Positions 739 to 57,500 of a stretch of DNA of 64,000 nt are shown here, in pieces (the first letter of the stretch is position 1; each line of letters starts with the position of its first letter). The notes below the pieces were generated by a model. The model was given only the letters and a program-made list of their open reading frames with translations, was not told the DNA's origin and did not search any database. The stretch comes from Candidatus Omnitrophota bacterium (lineage in GTDB: Bacteria; Omnitrophota; Gorgyraeia; Zapsychrales; Zapsychraceae). The position numbers and the translations under genes are program-made. The stretch spans positions 192,061-256,060 of the forward strand of contig JAGQKV010000002.1 of NCBI GenBank assembly GCA_020429915.1, read 5' to 3'.

Positions 739-1362
739 TCAGGCGGGCCGCTCCGGTACTTCTGAGCTAGGCAGGACAATGACCCCGGCCTTTTTCAATT
801 CCGCCACGGCCGCCTCCACATCCCCTTCCTTCAGATTGACCCCGCGGCAGGCGTCCGTGATCAGGACGGTCTTTAATCCCTCCCGCACGGCGTCCAGGCA
901 GGTGTATTTCACGCAGTAGTCCGTGGCCAGTCCGGCCACGTAGACGGTGGTGACTTTCTTTTCCTTAAGGTAAGCGGCCAAGCCGGTGGCCTTGCGGTGG
1001 CCGTTGTCATAGAATCCGCTGTAGCTGTCGATTTCCGGGTCCGTCCCTTTTTGAAAAATACGGTCGATTTTACCAAGCCGCAACGCGTCGACAAATTTGG
1101 CGCCTTCGGAACCCTGTACGCAGTGGTCCGGCCACAGGATCTGCTCAAGCCCGTTGAGGTCGATGACCTCCCCGGGCTGTTTGCCGTGACTGGAGGCAAA
1201 GCTCTTGTGCCCGGTCGGGTGCCAGTCCTGGGTGGCCACGACCAGATCGAAGCGTTCCTGCAGACCGTTGATCAGTGGTACGATTTGATCCCCCTCGGCC
1301 ACGGGCAGGGCGCCGCCGGGGCAAAAGTCGTTCTGGACGTCAATGATGAGCAGCGCGTTCAT
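739..1362 (-). CDS. pncA: nicotinamidase / isochorismatase-family hydrolase (PncA-like)
   Basis: MNALLIIDVQNDFCPGGALPV... matches the isochorismatase/nicotinamidase fold. I chose the internal Met as start; the track ORF extends to 1449. Confidence 0.75.
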   Translation of the reverse strand: MNALLIIDVQNDFCPGGALPVAEGDQIVPLINGLQERFDLVVATQDWHPTGHKSFASSHGKQPGEVIDLNGLEQILWPDHCVQGSEGAKFVDALRLGKIDRIFQKGTDPEIDSYSGFYDNGHRKATGLAAYLKEKKVTTVYVAGLATDYCVKYTCLDAVREGLKTVLITDACRGVNLKEGDVEAAVAELKKAGVIVLPSSEVPERPA

Positions 1363-2812
1363 GGTTCTTCCTGATTCTGAGGGTGAGTTCCTTTTTCCGG
1401 CCGAGGTAAGTCTGTTCGAACCCGACGGGATAGCTGTGCGGATTTTCAAAACGCTTCAGACCGGCGTGAAAGTGTTTGAGGTTGTCGATGGTGCTCTGTC
1501 GGATCGCGGCGATCTTGGGGCTGCGGTAGACGCCTTTTCCACGGCGGAAGACCGGTACCAGCAGGTCACGGTGCTTGGTCTTCGCGGAAATCGATTTGGC
1601 CCGCAGCGGATCGGTCGGGTGCATGATGGTGCAGCCCGACTGCGGCGGGTAGCGTATATCGAAGATCGCGTCGGCGATATTTTCTTTCTTGTTGTAGAAG
1701 CGCCGCACCTGAATGATCCCGGGATGGGAGATTTTGGCCGTCTGGTCCGAGATCTTCAGGGTATCGGACCATTCGCCGCCCGGTTCGCGGATGGCCGAGA
1801 CCTTGTATACGCCGCCGAGCGCGGGCTGATCGTAACAGGTGGTGAGTTTGGTCCCCACCCCCCACACCGCGATCTTGGCGCCCTGTTCTTTGAGGCTGCG
1901 GATCAGATGTTCGTCGAGCTCGTTGCTGGCCACGATTTTGGCGTCCGTCAGGCCGGCCTTGTCGAGTTTTTTGCGCGCGACCTTACTCAGATAAGCCAGG
2001 TCGCCGGAATCGAGCCGGATGCCGGACATGGTGTGCCCGTTCTTTTTCAGCCACTTTCCCGCGGTGATCGCGTGGTCGATGCCTTCCAGCGTATCGTAGG
2101 TATCGACCAGAAACGTCGTGTTGTGCGGCAGGGCGCGGGCGTAGGCCATGAAGGCCTCTTCCTCGGTGTCGAAGCTCATTACCCAGCTGTGCGCGTGGGT
2201 ACCCTTGACCGGAATGCCGAAGAGCTTGCCGGCGAGGGTATTGGAGGTACCGGCGCAGCCGCCGATGTAGGCGCCGCGGGCGGCATAAACCGAACCTTCC
2301 ACCCCCTGCGCGCGGCGCATACCGAACTCCAGCACAGGCTCGCCTTTGGCGGATTGACAGACGCGCGCCGCCTTGGTGGCGATCAGCGACTGAAAGTTCA
2401 GGCAGTTTAAGAGGGCCGTCTCCAGCAGCTGCGTCTCCAGGATCGGCCCGGTGATGCGCATCAGCGGTTCGTTGGGGAAAACCACCTCGCCCTCCGGGAT
2501 TGCGTCGATGTCGCAGGTCAGCTTCATCCCGCGCAGATCTTTAAGGAATTTCCGTTCGAAGAGTTTTTTTCCGCCGCTGCCGGTGAGTGTGGCCAGGTAC
2601 TCGATGTCCGAGTCATCGAAGCGGAATTCGTTCAGGTACGAAATCGCCGTATCCAGACCCGCCGCGATCGTGTACCCGCTGCCGAAGGGATTGCTGCGGA
2701 AGTACAGATGAAACACGGCCTCCTGCGTATGCCGACCGGATTTCCAGTAGGCGTAGGCCATGGTCAGTTCGTACAGATCCGTGAGGAGACCTAGGGAGCG
2801 GTTGGCAATCAT
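1340..2812 (-). CDS. pncB: nicotinate phosphoribosyltransferase
   Basis: 490 aa; LTDLYELTMAYAYWKSG...GTHAHSWVMSF is a typical PncB/NAPRTase signature. Confidence 0.9.
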   Translation of the reverse strand: MIANRSLGLLTDLYELTMAYAYWKSGRHTQEAVFHLYFRSNPFGSGYTIAAGLDTAISYLNEFRFDDSDIEYLATLTGSGGKKLFERKFLKDLRGMKLTCDIDAIPEGEVVFPNEPLMRITGPILETQLLETALLNCLNFQSLIATKAARVCQSAKGEPVLEFGMRRAQGVEGSVYAARGAYIGGCAGTSNTLAGKLFGIPVKGTHAHSWVMSFDTEEEAFMAYARALPHNTTFLVDTYDTLEGIDHAITAGKWLKKNGHTMSGIRLDSGDLAYLSKVARKKLDKAGLTDAKIVASNELDEHLIRSLKEQGAKIAVWGVGTKLTTCYDQPALGGVYKVSAIREPGGEWSDTLKISDQTAKISHPGIIQVRRFYNKKENIADAIFDIRYPPQSGCTIMHPTDPLRAKSISAKTKHRDLLVPVFRRGKGVYRSPKIAAIRQSTIDNLKHFHAGLKRFENPHSYPVGFEQTYLGRKKELTLRIRKNHERAAHH

Positions 2813-2825
2813 TTGTGCGCCTGGG

Positions 2826-2925
2826 TAGTGTGTATTAATTTCGAAATCCGAATCTTCGAATGCTCGAAGGAATATCGAATCTTCGAATGACCGAATGTTT
2901 GAAACGCTGGATGGTATTGTCCCGT
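2826..2925. repeat. TTCGAA-module composite repeat, copy E
   Basis: Array of (A/T)TTCGAA(T) and CGAATATCGAAT units ending cgaatgtttgaaacgctggatgg; homologous to the copies at 18490, 19325, 42085 and 57330, and an inverted copy of 3380-3500. Confidence 0.8.
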
Positions 2926-2962
2926 TAATGTCATGTTGGGGACAATTTAAAGAATTAGTATT

Positions 2963-3328
2963 TTATTCCAACTTTCTGACGATAGCGCCGAAAATCTTCA
3001 TCAGTTCATCGGATTCCTGGTGAAGATGGCGCTGAAGTGATTGTAGATCCAAATCGGGTCCCGCGTCAAGGATTCCAAGCCAATATCTGGCCTCCTTCGC
3101 CTCCTTACGGGAAACCTTTAGCCGGAAGATAAAATCTTTCTTCCCCAAAGCCTCATTAGCCTCGATATAGTTGGCACCAATCGAACCGGATGCGCGCACC
3201 AACTGCTTGGCGTCCTCCAGGTTCGGGAGGTCCTTGGGAATTTTTCTGATGAACTTCCGAACGTCTCTGGCGAAAGTGCGTGTACGATCTTCCAAATCGT
3301 AAATCCGGCCGGTCCTATCCTGATTCAT
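2963..3328 (-). CDS. four-helix-bundle protein (TIGR02436, '23S rRNA intervening-sequence protein' family)
   Basis: 121 aa; ...FARDVRKFIRKIPKD...ASGSIGANYIEANEA...EARYWL is the family signature. Confidence 0.8.
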   Translation of the reverse strand: MNQDRTGRIYDLEDRTRTFARDVRKFIRKIPKDLPNLEDAKQLVRASGSIGANYIEANEALGKKDFIFRLKVSRKEAKEARYWLGILDAGPDLDLQSLQRHLHQESDELMKIFGAIVRKLE

Positions 3329-3379
3329 GATGATCTCCTCTCAAGAGGGGATCGAGTGTGGCAGGGGTGTTTTTGTAAT

Positions 3380-3500
3380 TTGATTACATTTCGAAGATTC
3401 GAGAATTCGAACATTCAATATTATCCCAGGAGTTTCGAAATTCGAACATTCGGTTCTTCGATATTCCTTCGATATTCGAGGATTCGATATTCGAACCTAA
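3380..3500. repeat. TTCGAA-module composite repeat, copy F (inverted relative to copy E)
   Basis: The reverse complement of 3440-3500 (tcgaaggaatatcgaagaaccgaatgttcgaatttcgaaactcctgggata) aligns with copy E (ctcgaaggaatatcgaatcttcgaatgaccgaatgtttgaaacgctggatgg). Confidence 0.8.
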
Positions 3501-4822
3501 TACGCAGGAACTCCGCGGAGCTGATGCGGCGACGCCCCCGTAATCACGGCAGGAACAATGTCACCCACTTGATAATCGCCCTTTGAAATCGTGACCAGTT
3601 TATTGTTATCGGCGCGACCGAGGAAATTGTCGTCTGATTTTCGGGTCCCTTTCTTTTCGATCATGATGCTCATCGTCTGTCCGACATGCCGGGCGTTCAG
3701 CTTTTCCATGATTTCCCGCTGAAGCTCATTCAACGTCACAATCCTCTCCGTCTTGATCGCTTCAGGAACATCGTCCTCCATTTTACGCGAGGCGATCGTC
3801 CCCTTTCGTTGGGAGTACTTGAACATAAACGCCGAATCGAATTCGACTTCACGCATGACCTTCAGTGTCTGCTCGAACTCCTCATCGGTCTCGGTGCAGA
3901 AGCCGACGATGACGTCCGTGGAAAGCGCGATACCCGGGACCTTGGCGCGGATATTGTCGACCAGTTTGAGAAATTCGTTCTGTGTGTAGGTGCGGTTCAT
4001 CAGCTCCAGGATCCGGTCGGAGCCGGCCTGCAGCGGGAGGTGGATCTGTTTGCAGATATTCTCGTTGGCGGCCATCACCTCGAGAAACTTGTCCGGAAAA
4101 TCCTTCGGGTGCGGAGAGGTGAAACGGATGCGTTCGATGCCTTTGACCTTAGCCACGGCTGCCATCAGGTCGGCGAAGTCGTGCTCTTCGTGACGGTACG
4201 AATTGACATTTTGACCGAGCAGGGTGATCTGCTTGAAGCCATCGGCGGCGAGGCGTTCGGCCTCTTCGACGATATTGGCCACCGACCGGCTGCGTTCTCT
4301 TCCTCTGGTATAGGGCACCACACAGAAGGTGCAGAAATTGTTACACCCGCGCATGACCGCGATCCAGGCATTCACCCCGCCCTCGCGCTTGGGGTAAACA
4401 TCGCTGTATGTCTCGAATTCCGATAGCGTCAGATCAAAAGGCTTGCCTTCCCCGTAGGATTCGCTGATCAACTGCGGCAACCGTTTGTACGAATCCGGCC
4501 CCGCGATAAAGTCGATCTTCAATCCGCGGTCTTCGAACAGCTCGGTGCGCAGGTTGGTGGCCATGCACCCCAGGATCCCGATTTTCACCGGCGCCCCGGC
4601 CCGGTCATGCAGGATTTTGTGCACCCGCCCGTACACCTTCCGATGCGCATGCTCCCGGATGGCGCAGGTATTAAGCATAATAATATCCGCCTGCGCCTCG
4701 TCCTGCGTAAACGCGTAGTCCGCCTTGGTCAGAATTGCGCGAACGAGCTCGGTGTCGTATTCGTTCATTTGGCAGCCGTATGTTTCTAAGAAAATCGTCT
4801 TTTGTAACTTATTGTTATGCAT
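3497..4822 (-). CDS. miaB: tRNA-i6A37 methylthiotransferase MiaB (radical SAM)
   Basis: ETYGCQMNEYD...CNNFCTFCVVPYTRGRERSR plus a TRAM-like C-terminus. Start taken at MHNNKLQKTIF. Confidence 0.9.
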   Translation of the reverse strand: MHNNKLQKTIFLETYGCQMNEYDTELVRAILTKADYAFTQDEAQADIIMLNTCAIREHAHRKVYGRVHKILHDRAGAPVKIGILGCMATNLRTELFEDRGLKIDFIAGPDSYKRLPQLISESYGEGKPFDLTLSEFETYSDVYPKREGGVNAWIAVMRGCNNFCTFCVVPYTRGRERSRSVANIVEEAERLAADGFKQITLLGQNVNSYRHEEHDFADLMAAVAKVKGIERIRFTSPHPKDFPDKFLEVMAANENICKQIHLPLQAGSDRILELMNRTYTQNEFLKLVDNIRAKVPGIALSTDVIVGFCTETDEEFEQTLKVMREVEFDSAFMFKYSQRKGTIASRKMEDDVPEAIKTERIVTLNELQREIMEKLNARHVGQTMSIMIEKKGTRKSDDNFLGRADNNKLVTISKGDYQVGDIVPAVITGASPHQLRGVPAY

Positions 4823-4989
4823 ATAGTTGTAAATGTAAAATTTTACCATAATTTCGTATACATTCACCTGTCCCCTTTATGGGCACCTGGTACGTTTCTT
4901 TAGAAACGTCATGCAATGCTTGCAATACATCCTACGCAGATTTATCAATGACAATATCTTGGTAAATTGATGGCATTTAATTTACTCCT

Positions 4990-5298
4990 TTATTCTTCGG
5001 CAAACTCTTTTAGGGCTTTCAAGCGTTGATCCCATTGATCCTCAAGTTTAGATATGAATTGCCGTGCTCTTTCTAATTTTGATGGATTAAGGATAACACG
5101 GATTTCCCGTCCATTTGGTTTAAGTTGAACGACATCAGCGGAAACAAGAACTTGAATTTGTTTTCGGGCCCCCTGACGTGTTATTCCGAGATTTTCTGAA
5201 AGATTGCCAATTGTGTAGTCTGATCCGTCAGACAATCGCTTAACGATTTTCAGACGGATCGGATCACCTAACGCTTTGAAAACTTGCGTCACTGTCAT
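4990..5298 (-). CDS. ArsR/SmtB-family transcriptional regulator
   Basis: 102 aa; ALGDPIRLKIVKRLSDG...GNLSENLGITRQGARKQIQVL is an HTH_20-type motif. Confidence 0.85.
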   Translation of the reverse strand: MTVTQVFKALGDPIRLKIVKRLSDGSDYTIGNLSENLGITRQGARKQIQVLVSADVVQLKPNGREIRVILNPSKLERARQFISKLEDQWDQRLKALKEFAEE

Positions 5299-5739
5299 TT
5301 ACACACCATCAAACTGTTCAGCAAGTCGCCCAAGCATGAAATCCCACCCTTTGGAGTTTTGCTGGAACTTTCCTTCTGCCACTTCCTTTGGTAATTTGGA
5401 AAACCCGGATTCCGTGAGCGTCACTTTACAAACGCCTTTTTTTATCTCTTTAATCGTAAATTCGACTAATGTATTGGCAACTGACAAAACATCACCTGTA
5501 AAATGATTACTTCCCGGAACCCAGCGATATGAAAAATATTCATACGGCTTTGAATCTTGAATATAAATCTGATTTTTACCATGTTCGCCAAAGTCAAAAA
5601 TTGGTTGTTCTCCGACTTTATAAGAGCCTTCAACTTTATCCGGAAACCATAACACTACTTTCTTTGGATCGGCGATGGCTTCGAAAATTTGCTCTTTCGA
5701 AGCAGTAATTTCAATTTCACGTTTAATCGTATCTTGCAT
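5299..5739 (-). CDS. SRPBCC / Aha1-domain protein (activator of Hsp90 ATPase homologue-like)
   Basis: 146 aa. The architecture is a frequent ArsR partner. The stop abuts the ArsR start. Confidence 0.75.
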   Translation of the reverse strand: MQDTIKREIEITASKEQIFEAIADPKKVVLWFPDKVEGSYKVGEQPIFDFGEHGKNQIYIQDSKPYEYFSYRWVPGSNHFTGDVLSVANTLVEFTIKEIKKGVCKVTLTESGFSKLPKEVAEGKFQQNSKGWDFMLGRLAEQFDGV

Positions 5740-5799
5740 TTTTACCTCCCGAGACTTGATTAATAAGCTATTTCGGAAACTATACTATGAAAATAGCTT

Positions 5800-5823
5800 A
5801 AATGCAACTATATAGTTGCATTT
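5800..5823. promoter_or_regulatory. perfect 24-bp palindrome aaatgcaactatatagttgcattt, candidate ArsR-type operator
   Basis: Exact inverted repeat about 60 bp upstream of the SRPBCC-ArsR operon start (5739, minus strand). Confidence 0.5.
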
Positions 5824-6301
5824 ATAGCGATGAACCAAAAATTAATCAAACCTATTGTTTTTTGACTGATTCAAACAGCTCTTTCAAATCCTGCAAACCT
5901 TTTTCGAAATATCATTACAATATATACAAATATGGCAATCACAATTATGAAAATTAAAATAATTCCGTTAAACGTGGACTGTTTTCTATTTAAACTTATC
6001 CAAAGTTACCAAAAAAATTTCTAAAATCCGTAGTTTATTTTTTTACAACTGATTGTAAATTATGATCTTATCGCATTTATAATCTTCATTAAAGTTTTAC
6101 CATAAAGAGCTGTACGGTCAACCGTAGGTCTCAATGAAGATCTTTTTATTTTCTGTTGTAGTAATCATAAATGAATCCTTACGCTTACGAAGCAAAGCGA
6201 CGTAAGTGTTAGGTTGAATTTATCCCCCGAGCATAAGTGAGTGGGGATAGCCCGGAATTATACAACCTTTACTGTGGAAGTACAAGACGGACACAGAGGT
6301 G

Positions 6302-7357
6302 CTATATTCTTCGGTATCTCGTCGAACGCCCTTGTCCAATCCGTTCGATTCTCTTAAGCTTCAGGAGACGGTCGAGGACTTGGTTGACGGTCGGGCGGGC
6401 GACGTCCGCATTCTTGGCGATCTCGGCGGGAGACGCCTCATCGACAGTTTGTAGATACTCCCACACCGCCAGTTGTTTCGGCGACAGGAGCTTTTCGATG
6501 CTCTCAGCAGATAACAACTCAATGGCCGCTTTGGCTTGGGTATGAACGGCTGATAGAAAGAATTCGAGCCAAGGGGTAATATCCGGTTTCTTGCCATGCA
6601 TGGTTTTCTGGCTCTTGCGCAGGGCCAAATAGTAATCCGGCTTGTGGTCTTCAATCAACTTCTCGTGGGAGACATACGGAATATAAGCATAGCCGTGCTG
6701 AAGCAATAGCAGGTTGGTCAATATCCGTGACAGCCTGCCGTTCCCGTCCTGAAACGGGTGGATCAATAAAAACTCAACCACAAAGTTACCGATAATCAGC
6801 AAAGGCGGATACTTGGCCGTCTCAAATGCGCCTAATGTCGCTTCAATGAGTTCCTGCATGGCTTTGGAGGTTAAATAGACCGGAGTAGTATCAAACAGGA
6901 TACCGACCGACTGCCCCGCGTCATCGAGCATATGCACTTTGTTTTCCGACTTCTTGTACTCACCTCTGTGTCGGATATCCTTCTCGACGTATTTCAGCAG
7001 TTCCTTATGAAAGTGCTTGACGGTGGCTTCGGAAAAACGGACGGATTTCCAGGAATCGAAGACATTCTGAAGGAGCTCAAAATACCCCTGTACCTCCTGC
7101 CTGTCCCGGTCGGCGAATTTCTGAATGGCGATACCGCGCATCAGTTTTTCGATATCCTCGTCCGAGAGTTTGGCTCCTTCAATACGGGTCGAGGCCCCGG
7201 TGGAGGTGATCAGAACAGACCTTTTGAGGCGTCCCAGCAGGGCCGGATTCAGCTTGGCACCCGACACCCATCTCCCCTTTAACTCGTCAATTTTGATGAT
7301 TTTAGACCAGATTTCCGGGGGAAGGTTATCTAAACGGCTTGTAAAGGATTGACTCAT
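6302..7357 (-). CDS. Fic-family protein (AMPylation/Fido domain) with C-terminal winged HTH
   Basis: 351 aa; HPFQDGNGRLSR is the canonical Fic motif. The C-terminus PAEIAKNADVARPTVNQVLDRL is HTH-like. Confidence 0.9.
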   Translation of the reverse strand: MSQSFTSRLDNLPPEIWSKIIKIDELKGRWVSGAKLNPALLGRLKRSVLITSTGASTRIEGAKLSDEDIEKLMRGIAIQKFADRDRQEVQGYFELLQNVFDSWKSVRFSEATVKHFHKELLKYVEKDIRHRGEYKKSENKVHMLDDAGQSVGILFDTTPVYLTSKAMQELIEATLGAFETAKYPPLLIIGNFVVEFLLIHPFQDGNGRLSRILTNLLLLQHGYAYIPYVSHEKLIEDHKPDYYLALRKSQKTMHGKKPDITPWLEFFLSAVHTQAKAAIELLSAESIEKLLSPKQLAVWEYLQTVDEASPAEIAKNADVARPTVNQVLDRLLKLKRIERIGQGRSTRYRRI

Positions 7358-7420
7358 ATAGCCTCTTTTTCTTATATATCAAATATATAAGATTATATAA
7401 GATAATATAAGAATGTCAAG
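7358..7420 (-). promoter_or_regulatory. near-consensus sigma70 promoter for fic
   Basis: Read on the minus strand: ccaggcTTGACAttcttatattatcttaTATAATcttatatatttgatatataagaaaaAGAGGctataATG, i.e. TTGACA-16-TATAAT. It overlaps a threefold 'tatataaga' tandem. Confidence 0.6.
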
Positions 7421-7529
7421 CCTGGCTAGGGTTTGGGGGATTAGGTATTGTGTCCCTGGAATTACAAAACATGTGTCCGAAAATATGCGCGGCGTGTTTT
7501 AATCGTTTTCTTTTCATTGCTTAAAGCAG

Positions 7530-7787
7530 CTAAAACCAGTATTTCTTCATTTTTGTAAGAAACTGTTTCTCTATTGGGAATCCAGAACTACTGCCGATAA
7601 CAGAATCAATGCCACATTCCGGGCACAATGCTGTTTGGCCGATATCACTTTCATCTTCGTCAATCCACTCCTCGATCTTGTTCGGAGGGTAAATGGCTAG
7701 GCAGTGAAAACAACCGCAAATTTCGCTCGACAATATTTCTTGTCGATGCCCGCTGGAATGTTTGTGTGCACGAATAATATTAAACAT
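7530..7787 (-). CDS. small Cys-rich protein with CGCFHC...CPECG zinc-ribbon/CPCC-like motif
   Basis: 85 aa ORF in the AT-rich island; two CxxC-type pairs. Confidence 0.5.
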   Translation of the reverse strand: MFNIIRAHKHSSGHRQEILSSEICGCFHCLAIYPPNKIEEWIDEDESDIGQTALCPECGIDSVIGSSSGFPIEKQFLTKMKKYWF

Positions 7788-7949
7788 TGAGTTTACTCTT
7801 CATTATTGAATCTTTATCCTATTCAACAAAGTTCCTACAATTCGGGGCAATTCGGGGGACACGATACTTAATTATTGTGAATTAGGTATTGTGAGCTGAC
7901 CCGGGTCAGCTCATTGTGTCCCTGGGATTTATAATCTTTGTTCACGTCA

Positions 7950-8342
7950 TTATGTCTTTCCATAATCAAACTTGACCCATTTATTATTCACCAAGCATTC
8001 ACAGTTATCACCTGGATTTAAAAAATTCTTCCCCTTTTTTAGACGAAACTGATGGTTTTGAAGTGCTGTAATCAATCGATGAAGATGGTCGACCATTTCG
8101 GCTTCGAGTACACTTTCAGGTCTGTCGTCATATCCTAAATAATCGCACCAATCGGAAAACTTCAATTCTGATTCTGGACGCTCAATTTCCAAGAACCATT
8201 CAAGCGCCGAATACGCGACGGTGATTTTGAAAACTAAGTCGTTTTTTGAAAAGCTTAGTACAAATGCATCGTCTAATTCTTCAAGACTGAAATTCGGTTT
8301 GTTGCCGTATTCTCTTATTGAATCTAAAGAGCTATTATCCAT
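7950..8342 (-). CDS. hypothetical acidic protein (immunity-protein-like)
   Basis: 130 aa ORF with no recognisable motif. Confidence 0.45.
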   Translation of the reverse strand: MDNSSLDSIREYGNKPNFSLEELDDAFVLSFSKNDLVFKITVAYSALEWFLEIERPESELKFSDWCDYLGYDDRPESVLEAEMVDHLHRLITALQNHQFRLKKGKNFLNPGDNCECLVNNKWVKFDYGKT

Positions 8343-8462
8343 AAGTTAACATTATGCGCTTTTCGTTAAAGATTGTTATAACGGGTCAATTGCTGTGTGT
8401 TACAAAAACCTCGGCGTGGATTTGCATCAACGCGCGCTTTTTAACCCAATTTTCAGCCATAG

Positions 8463-18489: not shown

Positions 18490-18672
18490 GCCTTATTGCA
18501 AAGGTAATATCGAATCGTCGAATGCTTGAATGTTTAAAACAATTTCGAATCATTGAATGCTCGAGACAATATCTGATCAGTCAATATTCGAATGTTTCAA
18601 ACGATCCAGGTTTAGAACATTCGGTGATTGGACAATTAGAATTTGTTTCGAGCCTTCGAGGATTCGGAATTA
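18490..18672. repeat. TTCGAA-module composite repeat, copy A
   Basis: Aligns base-for-base over about 160 bp with copy B (gaatgyttgaatrtttaaaacaatwtcgaatc...caatattcgaatstttcaaacg..caggttt..aacattcggtgat...). Confidence 0.85.
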
Positions 18673-18721: not shown

Positions 18722-19297
18722 TCAGCTGCGCAGCACCTTCTCGATGCGCTCGTCCGGCACGATCCACATCACGGCCACCAGCGCGTAGAGGCTGCCGGCG
18801 AGGACCGGACTGACGAAGGCCAGGCCGATGGCCGCGGCATAAATGACCATGGACATCTTTCCCTTGATATCGTTGCCCATCGCCTTGGCCAGCAGGGAAT
18901 CCTTGCCGTGCGAATACAGCAACACCTTCACCAGGATGTTGTAGCTTAACCCGGCCAGCAGCAGATTCACTCCGTAGAGGATGACCGGATTGCGGGCGAA
19001 GTGGTTCTCGCCCATCCAGCCCGTGACAAACGGAATCAGCGACAGCCAGAACAGCAGGACCACATTCGCCCACAGCACCCGTCCGTCGATCGATTTGACC
19101 GCCTTGAGCAGGTGATGATGATTGTTCCAGTAAATCGCCAGATAGGCGAAGCTCATCACATAACTCAGAAAGACGGGGATGATGGGCTTGAGCGCCGACC
19201 ACCCCTCGCCGTGCGGGATTTTCATCTCCAGGACCATGATCGTCATGATGATCGCGATCACCGCGTCGCTGAAGGCTTCCATGCGTGTTTTGTCCAT
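18722..19297 (-). CDS. TMEM175/DUF1211-family membrane protein (putative K+ channel)
   Basis: MEAFSDAVIAIIMTIMVLE... and FSDGV-like signature; six TM segments. Confidence 0.75.
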   Translation of the reverse strand: MDKTRMEAFSDAVIAIIMTIMVLEMKIPHGEGWSALKPIIPVFLSYVMSFAYLAIYWNNHHHLLKAVKSIDGRVLWANVVLLFWLSLIPFVTGWMGENHFARNPVILYGVNLLLAGLSYNILVKVLLYSHGKDSLLAKAMGNDIKGKMSMVIYAAAIGLAFVSPVLAGSLYALVAVMWIVPDERIEKVLRS

Positions 19298-19324: not shown

Positions 19325-19505
19325 GTTAATTTAGCAATTTTAAAATGCGAATCTTAGAATGTTCGAATATTTAAAACAATATCGAATCTTCGAATCTGCG
19401 GGACAATATCGAATACTTCAATATTCGAATCTTTCAAACGCATCAGGTTTTAAACATTCGGTGATCGATAAATTTGAATTTGTCGCGTGTATTCGGGTAT
19501 TCGAA
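19325..19505. repeat. TTCGAA-module composite repeat, copy B (direct relative to copy A)
   Basis: See copy A. The pair brackets the TMEM175-like gene. Confidence 0.85.
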
Positions 19506-19533
19506 ATTTTATTCGCCGGTCCCCCGCTCATCA

Positions 19534-42084: not shown

Positions 42085-42355
42085 ATGCGATGGCTGAGAG
42101 TTATGGAAATTCGAATTTGTGAATGTACGAAGGGCCGAAACAAATCCGAATCTTGGAGTACCCGAGACACATTGGAATTATCGAATCCCCGAATCTCCCA
42201 AACGCGCCCTGCTCTGTTTGGGACATTGATAAATTCGGTGATTCGGTATTGTCTCGAGCATTCGGTAATCGATATTGTTTCGGACATTCGAACATTCGAA
42301 GATTCGACATTCCCTCGAACATTCGAGTATTCGAAAATTCGAAATTCTACCCCCG
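42085..42355. repeat. TTCGAA-module composite repeat, copy C (longest, mosaic)
   Basis: Contains ttcggtgatt, atattgtctcgagcattc (the reverse complement of the copy A module gaatgctcgagacaatat) and a run of cattcgaa units. Confidence 0.8.
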
Positions 42356-42952
42356 ACGGGTGTATGTGATCAGCATACTGCGAAACTCCTCCCCGCTCTC
42401 ATCCTCCATGAACATCTCAAACGTCCAGGTGTCCTCATCCACGAAGGTGGTTTTGGAACGGTTCCAGCGTTCGCTGTTGGTGAGCGGGCAGGAGAATGTT
42501 CCTTCTTCCTCGACGCTTCCGTCCTCCGCCAGTTCTCCGGAGGAGACCATCATGCCGGTGGCCATGCTGTCGAGCCAGATGCTTTGAAATTCTTTCTGGA
42601 TATTATCGTAACCGAACAGCCCCATACCCTGAAACGGCTGGCCCATCCACTCGCTGTTGAATTCCTGTTTGATGAACCGCCCGCCGAAGATCGCCTCTGA
42701 TTCGGCTGTGCCCATGCTTTCCTCAGCCGGGGCGCCCGGCGCCATCCAGTGCTGCACCTTCGCGTCCCACGACCCGGCCATCTTGGCCAGTTTTTCATGC
42801 ATGGCGTTGGGAGTCGAGTACGCCTCAAAGTTCTTCATCATCTCCATCTCCTCCGGCGTCATCTCTCCCATCTCCCCCATGTCACCGGCAAAGACCGGGG
42901 CGGATAGTGTGATGGCGAAAATGGTCAGGAAAAGTATGGATGATTCTTTCAT
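42347..42952 (-). CDS. secreted DUF1579-like protein
   Basis: 201 aa with a signal peptide. Confidence 0.5.
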   Translation of the reverse strand: MKESSILFLTIFAITLSAPVFAGDMGEMGEMTPEEMEMMKNFEAYSTPNAMHEKLAKMAGSWDAKVQHWMAPGAPAEESMGTAESEAIFGGRFIKQEFNSEWMGQPFQGMGLFGYDNIQKEFQSIWLDSMATGMMVSSGELAEDGSVEEEGTFSCPLTNSERWNRSKTTFVDEDTWTFEMFMEDESGEEFRSMLITYTRRG

Positions 42953-57329: not shown

Positions 57330-57500
57330 TTCTGTGTATTCGACGAATTTTCGAATCCCGAATATACGAGACGAATTCAAATCACGCCATCACCGACTGT
57401 TCAAAACAGATTTGATAATGTTTCAGTGATTTAATCATTCAATGATTCGATATTGTCTCGAAAACTCGAGGATTCGAGTTTTCTATCCTGAATCCGCTTA
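57330..57500. repeat. TTCGAA-module composite repeat, copy D
   Basis: gattcgatattgtctcgaaaactcgaggattcgag plus cgaat units; homologous to copies C and A. Confidence 0.7.

Follow-up and report, generated by a model that had tools for sequence, protein, structure and literature searches.

What is a 121-aa gene, bracketed by inverted copies of a short repeat, doing between the housekeeping genes miaB and pncB of a Candidatus Omnitrophota bacterium? The question arises in a stretch of 64,000 nucleotides (assembly GCA_020429915.1, contig JAGQKV010000002.1, positions 192,061 to 256,060), hereafter the window. The gene encodes a four-helix-bundle protein (4HB protein) of the TIGR02436/PF05635 or S23p family, and an initial annotation of the window had read the arrangement as a mobilised cassette. 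We conclude, with a probability of about 75%, that the segment from ~2823 to 3511 represents one insertion element, of the type known as intervening sequences (IVSs) in 23S rRNA and located here between protein-coding genes. The element is a palindrome, with arms F and E as arrays of CGAA-core units and the 121-aa S23p/Avd-like open reading frame (ORF) at its centre, inserted into the last miaB codons in an ancestor in which miaB and pncB overlapped.

The cassette between miaB and pncB

The genes around the cassette (miaB, the 121-aa gene, pncB and pncA) are all on the minus strand. The features are given in coding-strand order.

3497..4867, minus strand: miaB, the upstream host gene (TIGR01574, 472.6 bits)
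3388..3496: arm F, the palindrome's right arm, preceding the 4HB gene on the coding strand, ~11 CGAA-core units, each 7-8 nt long
3329..3387, minus strand: leader from arm F to the start codon, read from the sequence
2963..3328, minus strand: 4HB gene, 121 aa, TIGR02436/PF05635, S23p/Avd-like family
2908..2962, minus strand: trailer from the stop codon to the downstream arm, from the sequence and the RNA fold
2836..2907: arm E, left arm of the palindrome, downstream on the coding strand, ending at the central motif of the repeat family, CCGAATGTTTGAAACGC
1340..2812, minus strand: pncB, the downstream host gene (NF006695, 592.6 bits)

The leader contains a small hairpin (GTAAT-CAA-ATTAC, read from the sequence) and, 8 nt ahead of the 4HB start codon, the Shine-Dalgarno-like sequence GAGAGGAG; the trailer contains a 7-bp hairpin (TTGTCCC...GGGACAA). 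The 4HB protein scored 68.3 bits with TIGR02436 (cutoff 24) and 48.6 bits with PF05635 (cutoff 33.8); these scores and the neighbouring genes agree with the initial annotation that the repeats flank only a 121-aa TIGR02436 gene between miaB and pncB.

A repeat search paired E and F as inverted arms in two registers, 2864-2896 with 3440-3472 (33 nt, 82%) and 2871-2904 with 3389-3422 (34 nt, 79%). Several registers are possible because units of 7-8 nt that share a CGAA/TTCGAA core make up the repeat. A gapped local alignment of the two arms covered ~82 nt (2840-2919 versus 3415-3495, ~77%) with a score of 38, compared to 10.4 ± 1.7 (maximum 17.5) for dinucleotide shuffles and 9.3 ± 1.6 (maximum 19) for 639 sliding control pairs in the window, and the earlier description of E and F as reverse complements over ~55 bp was a fair one. 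The pattern TTCGAANNTTCGAA, with at most 1 mismatch, occurred 12 times in the window versus 0.35 expected, and the occurrences were clustered.

The polarity of the units showed how the two arms belong together. E contains five YGAAT and no ATTCR units, and F contains no YGAAT and eight ATTCR units. In four gene-less palindromes elsewhere in the window (A to D, described below), YGAAT units occupy the left half and ATTCR units the right half, with a switch at the centre. When both were placed in a multiple alignment with the family consensus, E covered only the left arm, as far as the central motif, and F only the right arm, beginning at that motif. E, with left-arm units alone, and F, with right-arm units alone, are therefore two halves of one palindrome and not two whole copies, and E, gene and F form one palindrome with ~480 bp (leader, ORF and trailer) at its apex. 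The earlier view of E and F as two copies of the repeat holds insofar as they are inverted relatives, and needs correction in that each is half a palindrome. E is 83% identical to an arm of gene-less copy C over 70 bp.

In the predicted fold of the cassette transcript (-220 kcal/mol, z = -6.4), E and F made up the closing stem of the minimum-free-energy structure. Like the rRNA IVSs, the cassette thus has inverted repeats at its ends that can pair into a stem and enclose an S23p ORF as the loop, but it lies between miaB and pncB and not inside a helix of 23S (or 16S) rRNA. On RNA, the arms could also pair as an imperfect long stem open to RNase III, as in rRNA IVSs; processing of the window copy by RNase III is possible, its arms being complementary enough for a closing stem. 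An Rfam search of the cassette gave no real match, only sub-threshold matches to microRNA hairpins, and across the whole window no family reached its gathering score and no rRNA was found.

The AlphaFold2 model of the 4HB protein consisted of four helices (pLDDT 92.5) with residues 1-8 disordered. A Foldseek search with this model gave 2RLD (TM-score 0.74-0.82) and 2GSC as the top hits, followed by the Avd structures 8UB7, an Avd-reverse transcriptase-RNA particle, and 4DWL. The predicted fold is thus a four-helix bundle like those of 2RLD and 2GSC. The solved relatives 2RLD, 2GSC and 4DWL each have chains A-E. The NCBIfam Avd model gave no match for the window protein. A hand count from the alignment with a 97%-identical strain gave ~8 synonymous and 2 non-synonymous differences in the ORF, and the protein therefore appears to be under purifying selection. 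The TIGR02436 family had 7272 matches at E ≤ 1e-5 among the candidates scored; structures of the S23p/TIGR02436 family have been solved, and we know of no function for it outside diversity-generating retroelements.

The miaB-pncB junction was then compared with those of relatives. In the sister species L005 (amino acid identity 85% for MiaB and 84% for PncB), the miaB stop codon overlaps the pncB start codon as ATGA, with no repeat and no gene in between. In a more distant Omnitrophota genome (L223, PncB 65%), miaB likewise overlaps pncB, and in the other outgroup (L222, PncB 60%) the gene order differs and is uninformative for the junction. The overlap in L005 and L223 is therefore ancestral and the ~685-bp unit of the window, on this comparison, a derived insertion. 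The initial annotation had proposed a search for an empty site at this junction, and L005 and L223, with overlapping genes and no cassette, both provide one. The derived insertion also supports the claim of a mobilised cassette between housekeeping genes, and the comparison suggests that it moved as a unit.

On the minus strand the window reads ...GCG TAT TAG|GTTCGAATATCG, with the miaB stop codon TAG (3497-3499) directly adjoining the first repeat unit. The last four codons of miaB read VPAY* in the window versus ELAP* in L005, and ~13 nt of the ancestral miaB tail (GCGCACAAATGA) remain just upstream of and across the pncB ATG; the L005 junction used for comparison reads ...CTCGCACCATGATCGCC. 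These junctions suggest entry into the last four miaB codons. No target-site duplication was discernible at the miaB/pncB junction in comparison with L005. The cassette locus was present in each of the 23 contigs inspected, which came from several samples (4 distinct places shown), and is therefore not an assembly artefact. The 97%-identical strain keeps the cassette, with a two-unit (16-bp) indel in arm F, that is, in one arm only.

Heptad arrays around the family in other genomes

We scanned metagenomes with an alignment of 33 homologues and obtained 80 loci with 53-63% amino acid identity, of which 59 with at least 220 bp on both sides were used for flank scoring. The upstream flank was scored against the reverse-complemented downstream flank with a threshold of 17. 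Inverted flanks at or above this threshold were found in 51 of the 59 loci (median score 22.5), whereas 74 displaced control pairs from these loci all stayed below it (mean 10.6, maximum 15.5). The arms of the metagenome homologues use the same unit type as those of the window. Distant family members in L189 and L069 carry heptamer inverted repeats of their own, and the heptad type varies by protein subfamily (CGAANNN; GTGATGA; GGGATAC; others in L189 and L069). Judged from these sequences, inverted arms with an ORF in the loop are the characteristic layout of the TIGR02436/PF05635 family across phyla, ordinary operons included. In the part of the literature that we covered, this layout was previously known only from 23S rRNA IVSs; we found there no report that connects TIGR02436/PF05635 genes with heptad arrays at their flanks outside rRNA, and no paper on the motif sequence itself; an earlier description is possible.

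The exact 18-mer GAAATCCGAAACAAATTC was present in 17 of the 80 metagenome loci, in at least 120 stretches of species-representative genomes and in 12 viral contigs. Among the matches listed, the hosts (metagenome-assembled genomes, MAGs) belonged to Planctomycetota, Desulfobacterota and 'delta' groups, Saccharibacteria/Patescibacteria, Aminicenantes, Verrucomicrobiota, Omnitrophota, Dehalogenimonas, Hydrogenedentes, Nitrospiraceae and others, and several genomes hold 2-5 loci with the exact 18-mer. A family gene lay within 400 nt in only 7 of the 139 motif matches listed (~95% gene-less). Of 129 motif matches examined, 71 had an inverted partner, in 62 cases 20-200 nt away. The gene-carrying copies were found in Gemmataceae, a Saccharibacteria chromosome, a Dehalogenimonas genome and others. 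Gene-less copies as deletion derivatives of gene-carrying ones were considered and rejected: six-frame translations of the loops scored 4.9 bits on the family profile versus 4.4 bits for shuffles, and one possible gene remnant, in L167, was marginal.

The array anatomy was determined from 129 canonical elements anchored on the terminal unit. A canonical arm has four AA-NNN-CG heptads, no more and no fewer, and closes with AAACAAA; counted as CGAA plus three variable bases, the array comprises exactly five heptads. Units 1-4 match the heptad form in 86-100% of the arms, and the 7 nt before unit 1 do so in only 4 of 129. The inner distance between the arms is bimodal, 50-150 nt in 74 gene-less elements or 400-500 nt in 55 gene-carrying elements. 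In the latter, the ATG follows the array end at a median of 5 nt, and the downstream array follows the stop codon at a median of 32 nt. Among 30 distinct cassettes, the pairwise identity was 91% in the array cores, 70% at coding positions 1 and 2 and 38% at position 3, indicating that the noncoding arms are more constrained than the protein.

The canonical cassette on the Saccharibacteria chromosome OZ246403.1 (L162, 440-920) has its ATG directly after the array. Over its first ~10 codons (ACCGAAAATCAAAATTCAAAAC) the sequence is similar to the inner arm of copies without a gene, and the ATG coincides with an ATG inside the conserved TTCAAATGACC of gene-less elements. This arrangement of the start codon fits the disordered, variable N-terminus of the 4HB protein.

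The arms of the canonical family were also analyzed for the trace of a conserved RNA stem. The identity of mirrored heptads (0.18, 0.13, 0.15 and 0.35) showed no excess over shuffled partners (0.20, 0.17, 0.12 and 0.32), and in an RNAalifold analysis of 40 gene-less elements only the invariant blocks paired, with a covariation term of 0.04. Since neither the unit-level nor the RNAalifold test gave a compensatory signal, a conserved RNA stem was dropped, and a protein-binding array is favoured over a strict RNA stem. The sequences indicate that the repeat is inverted because both arms are instances of one array in opposite orientation, rather than because a stem is kept. An Rfam search of 15 canonical loci returned nothing except 23S rRNA beside one gene-less copy. 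A Planctomycetia MAG (L106, 1-3330) carries a canonical five-heptad palindrome without a gene in the rRNA operon spacer, ~650-850 nt ahead of the 5' end of a 23S rRNA gene and outside the rRNA itself.

In many cassettes the upstream arm begins right at the stop of a co-directional host gene. When oriented by the ORF, 35 of 49 cassettes have a co-directional ORF of at least 80 aa that ends within -25 to +60 nt of the upstream array. In 17 of these 35, the upstream stop codon lies at -2 to +3 of the array (p = 3e-11 versus a uniform spread), often as T|AA, finished by the first bases of the array. On the downstream side, a stop codon at the array edge was observed in only 2 of 19 cases, and gene-less elements showed a weaker enrichment of stop codons on both sides. 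The window cassette, miaB TAG|GTTCGAAT, fits this stop-codon start pattern and is co-oriented with both host genes, miaB and pncB. No sigma-70-like promoter was found in arm F or the leader, and no promoter-like or terminator-like site in or beside either arm or between miaB and the 4HB start; the only promoter-like match in the region lies inside the 4HB coding sequence and is within chance expectation. No terminator-like site was found from miaB to pncB. The cassette would be transcribed by read-through from miaB, with the 4HB gene riding on host expression. In the window copy, translation of the 4HB gene would use its own Shine-Dalgarno sequence, and canonical copies probably rely on re-initiation after the host stop codon.

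Competing explanations and known systems

How the arms would work can be proposed from the combined data. They may be sequence-specific recognition arrays, an idea that the extremely conserved 4-nt core, the fixed count of five heptads and the subfamily-specific heptads fit. The most likely partner would be the 4HB protein as a putative pentamer, with five heptads for five subunits in a TRAP-like manner; the gene product is deemed the likeliest candidate since solved relatives have five chains and Avd occurs in an RNA-protein particle. A wider and far more tentative proposal, which we regard as possible rather than probable, is that S23p/Avd-like proteins and inverted five-heptad arrays together constitute a previously unrecognised class of selfish element that crosses phyla. 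It would work by cognate pentamer-array recognition with one heptad per subunit, land at host stop codons, ride on host translation and leave gene-less hairpins, and the rRNA IVSs would be only a subset of it.

Several observations weigh against the favoured reading of an IVS-type insertion element. The arms do not covary, and a conserved RNA stem is thus unsupported for the canonical family. The arms of the window copy belong to an expanded variant with 8-11 units of 7-8 nt instead of five heptads, so the five-for-five argument is not directly applicable to it. Gene-less copies outnumber gene-carrying ones by ~10:1 among the matches listed, and their loops hold no recognisable gene remnant, so either form may have given rise to the other. 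Among 126 elements analyzed for a target-site duplication (k = 2-8, offsets ± 3), the best result was a 2-bp match in 16 elements versus 9 expected, and in the loci examined neither the cassette nor the ~8 kb around it encodes a transposase or reverse transcriptase; the argument for mobility is accordingly a comparative one. Binding of the 4HB protein to the arrays is putative.

Among the other explanations, a classical non-autonomous transposon comes first. On this view, a transposase encoded at some other locus would bind the arms as terminal inverted repeats, the 4HB gene would travel as a passenger, and copies without a gene would be ordinary miniature inverted-repeat elements. Inverted ends, many copies per genome and a spread across phyla speak for it, as do three sites within 7.7 kb that are polymorphic for the presence of an element. 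Two marks of miniature transposons are there as well: the ends are inverted repeats, and a genome can hold several copies, the window having five further arm sets. Repeated sub-terminal binding sites are common in transposon ends, which also counts in its favour. However, no target-site duplication was found in the 126 elements and no transposase stands beside any copy in the loci examined. A passenger would also not be expected in a fixed register, with its ATG 5 nt after the array, nor with its own heptad type for each protein subfamily. We therefore consider this explanation unlikely.

A host-beneficial regulatory hairpin would be an element for RNA processing, stabilisation or termination, with the 4HB protein as a trans-acting regulator, domesticated rather than selfish. 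The copies of the repeat in the window all lie between co-directional genes, the arrays are under strong purifying selection, and the paired heptanucleotide arrays of Geobacter metallireducens have been read as global-regulator sites (PMC2700814). The sister species, however, lacks the elements at the same sites, stem covariation is absent, and the patchy phyla that nevertheless share exact 18-mers fit horizontal spread better than an old regulon. These points make a regulatory hairpin quite improbable.

Mere coincidence, in which a general intergenic repeat happens to flank a resident 4HB gene with two independent copies, could draw on the fact that other spacers of the window hold four copies without a gene, and on copies A and B, which flank an unrelated TMEM175 gene, but it is very hard to reconcile with E as a pure left and F as a pure right arm when every gene-less copy has both, with the joint absence of gene and arms from two relatives, and with the same flanks in 51 of 59 homologues against 0 of 74 controls. 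Retro-mobility, in which an Avd-like 4HB protein would recruit a cellular reverse transcriptase to its own array-flanked transcript and the cDNA would be integrated at gene ends, has in its favour that Avd is the obligatory reverse transcriptase partner in diversity-generating retroelements (PMC10053308), occurs in an RNA-protein particle (8UB7) and gives sub-threshold matches with paralogues 2 and 3 of this genome; we give it hardly any credence, as reverse transcriptase, template repeat and variable repeat are all missing within 8 kb, poly-A or any other retro-insertion signature is absent, and the Avd model score is 42.6 versus a cutoff of 80.

The insertion element that we favour is closest to the IVSs of 23S rRNA in Leptospira, Coxiella burnetii, Brucella and Xanthomonas, with which it shares the S23p protein family (PF05635/TIGR02436), an ORF enclosed by inverted repeats at the ends that can pair as a stem, and short heptamers in tandem ahead of the start codon. 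It differs in lying outside rRNA, at the 3' end of a protein-coding gene in an operon-like array. The Coxiella IVS has a terminal inverted-repeat stem of 28 bp, an S23p ORF in the loop and tandem heptamers of the type GACAGAT before the ATG, and it is cut by RNase III (PMC4990558). Its arm is a near-perfect 28-bp stem, whereas the arms of the window element are long unit arrays. In rRNA IVSs, ORF-less and ORF-bearing forms coexist, the distribution is sporadic, horizontal transfer is suspected, and an origin by transposition was suggested long ago (PMC4990558).

The gene-less copies match in design, and differ in core sequence from, the 'class 3 global regulator binding sites' of Geobacter metallireducens (Aklujkar et al. 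2009), which consist of five tandem heptanucleotides (CTGA plus three bases) and form opposite-strand pairs ~100 nt apart in operon spacers, e.g. moaA/mosC and proB/proA (PMC2700814). Those sites were interpreted as IHF/HU sites, and the supplementary files of that paper contain no mention of S23, 'intervening' or 'helix bundle' (PMC2700814).

REPtrons and REP/BIME elements resemble the window element in that a single small gene is bracketed by an inverted repeat that is otherwise scattered. In REPtrons, a RAYT gene stands between inverted REP copies, which are also scattered gene-less between genes, often after stop codons. RAYT is an HUH tyrosine transposase, whereas the window gene encodes a PF05635 four-helix bundle with no known catalytic activity, and REPtron arms are REP hairpins in contrast to the tandem heptad arrays here. 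Avd, a nucleic-acid-binding pentamer (4DWL, 8UB7), has a fold in common with the window protein; unlike in a diversity-generating retroelement, there is no reverse transcriptase, template or variable repeat among the neighbours of the window gene. As a comparison of mode of action without homology, TRAP-like ring proteins and the TAACTGA heptamer repeats of Beggiatoaceae would offer a parallel, in which a short core plus variable spacer is repeated once per ring subunit.

The origin of rRNA IVSs has been an open question since 1990. If the selfish-element proposal were true, the classical 23S rRNA IVSs would be only the subset that landed in rRNA. The analysis brings a gene family without characterisation together with several intergenic repeat families without explanation, as parts of one system that can be tested. 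The repeats concerned are the paired heptanucleotides of Geobacter and the gene-less palindromes of Planctomycetota, Desulfobacterota, Patescibacteria, Chloroflexota and others. It also carries a warning for annotation, as such insertions rewrite the last few codons of housekeeping genes.

Further copies in the same genome

The window contains four gene-less palindromes, all imperfect and 140-250 bp long.

18509..18667: gene-less palindrome A, self-complementary (70% over 134 nt), polarity switches at the centre
19330..19510: gene-less palindrome B, 77% identical to A over 175 nt
42100..42346: gene-less palindrome C, self-complementary (66% over 211 nt), with a polarity switch
57338..57480: gene-less palindrome D, more degenerate, with a polarity switch

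Repeats without cargo are therefore present, and the initial annotation had named them as a finding that would speak against a cassette. The cassette reading is nevertheless not refuted by them: they show that the arms are part of a wider family whose members may or may not carry a gene, as is known of rRNA IVSs. The initial annotation had also pointed to other TIGR02436 paralogues as a place to look for the same inverted repeats. Two more such genes are present in this genome, on contig L008 just beyond the window, and are bracketed by inverted arms of 33-36 nt, with heptad types that differ from that of the window cassette.

L008 13974-14457: second TIGR02436 gene (118 aa), ~6 kb beyond window position 1
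L008 17271-17760: third TIGR02436 gene (117 aa), missing from the gene list of the contig
L008 11792-11975: gene-less hairpin, ~180 bp, arms of GTGATTA heptamers, immediately behind the stop codon of nadA

The arms of the second cassette (33 nt, 88% complementary) are made of GTGATGA/GTGGTGA heptamers and those of the third (36 nt, 86%) of GGGATAC/GTGATAC heptamers, and the arm spacing is 418 nt in both. The second cassette is absent from L005, where the stop codons of the flanking genes stand 4 bp apart. The hairpin that adjoins nadA, with a 14/14-nt inverted repeat TAGTGATTGGGGAT, is also absent from L005. Within a syntenic block of 7.7 kb there are thus three presence/absence differences with respect to L005, and each element starts at the stop codon of the upstream gene. 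The PADLOC defence-system library gave 0 matches for all three TIGR02436 paralogues.

Some further features of these copies and of the surrounding sequence were observed. The right arm of the second cassette now encodes the last residues of a zf-CDGSH gene. The outer end of palindrome C directly adjoins the TAG (42347-42349) of an upstream minus-strand gene (42347..42952), with the same geometry as at the miaB stop codon. Palindromes A and B are direct repeats that flank a 191-aa gene of the TMEM175 potassium-channel family (18722..19297, minus strand); A, the TMEM175 gene and B could be a composite unit or merely two neighbouring insertions. Upstream of miaB, the stretch 4870-8400 is AT-rich between GC-richer flanks and contains genes for an ArsR-like regulator, an AHSA1-domain protein and a Fic-domain protein as well as small ORFs, and it may be an acquired island.

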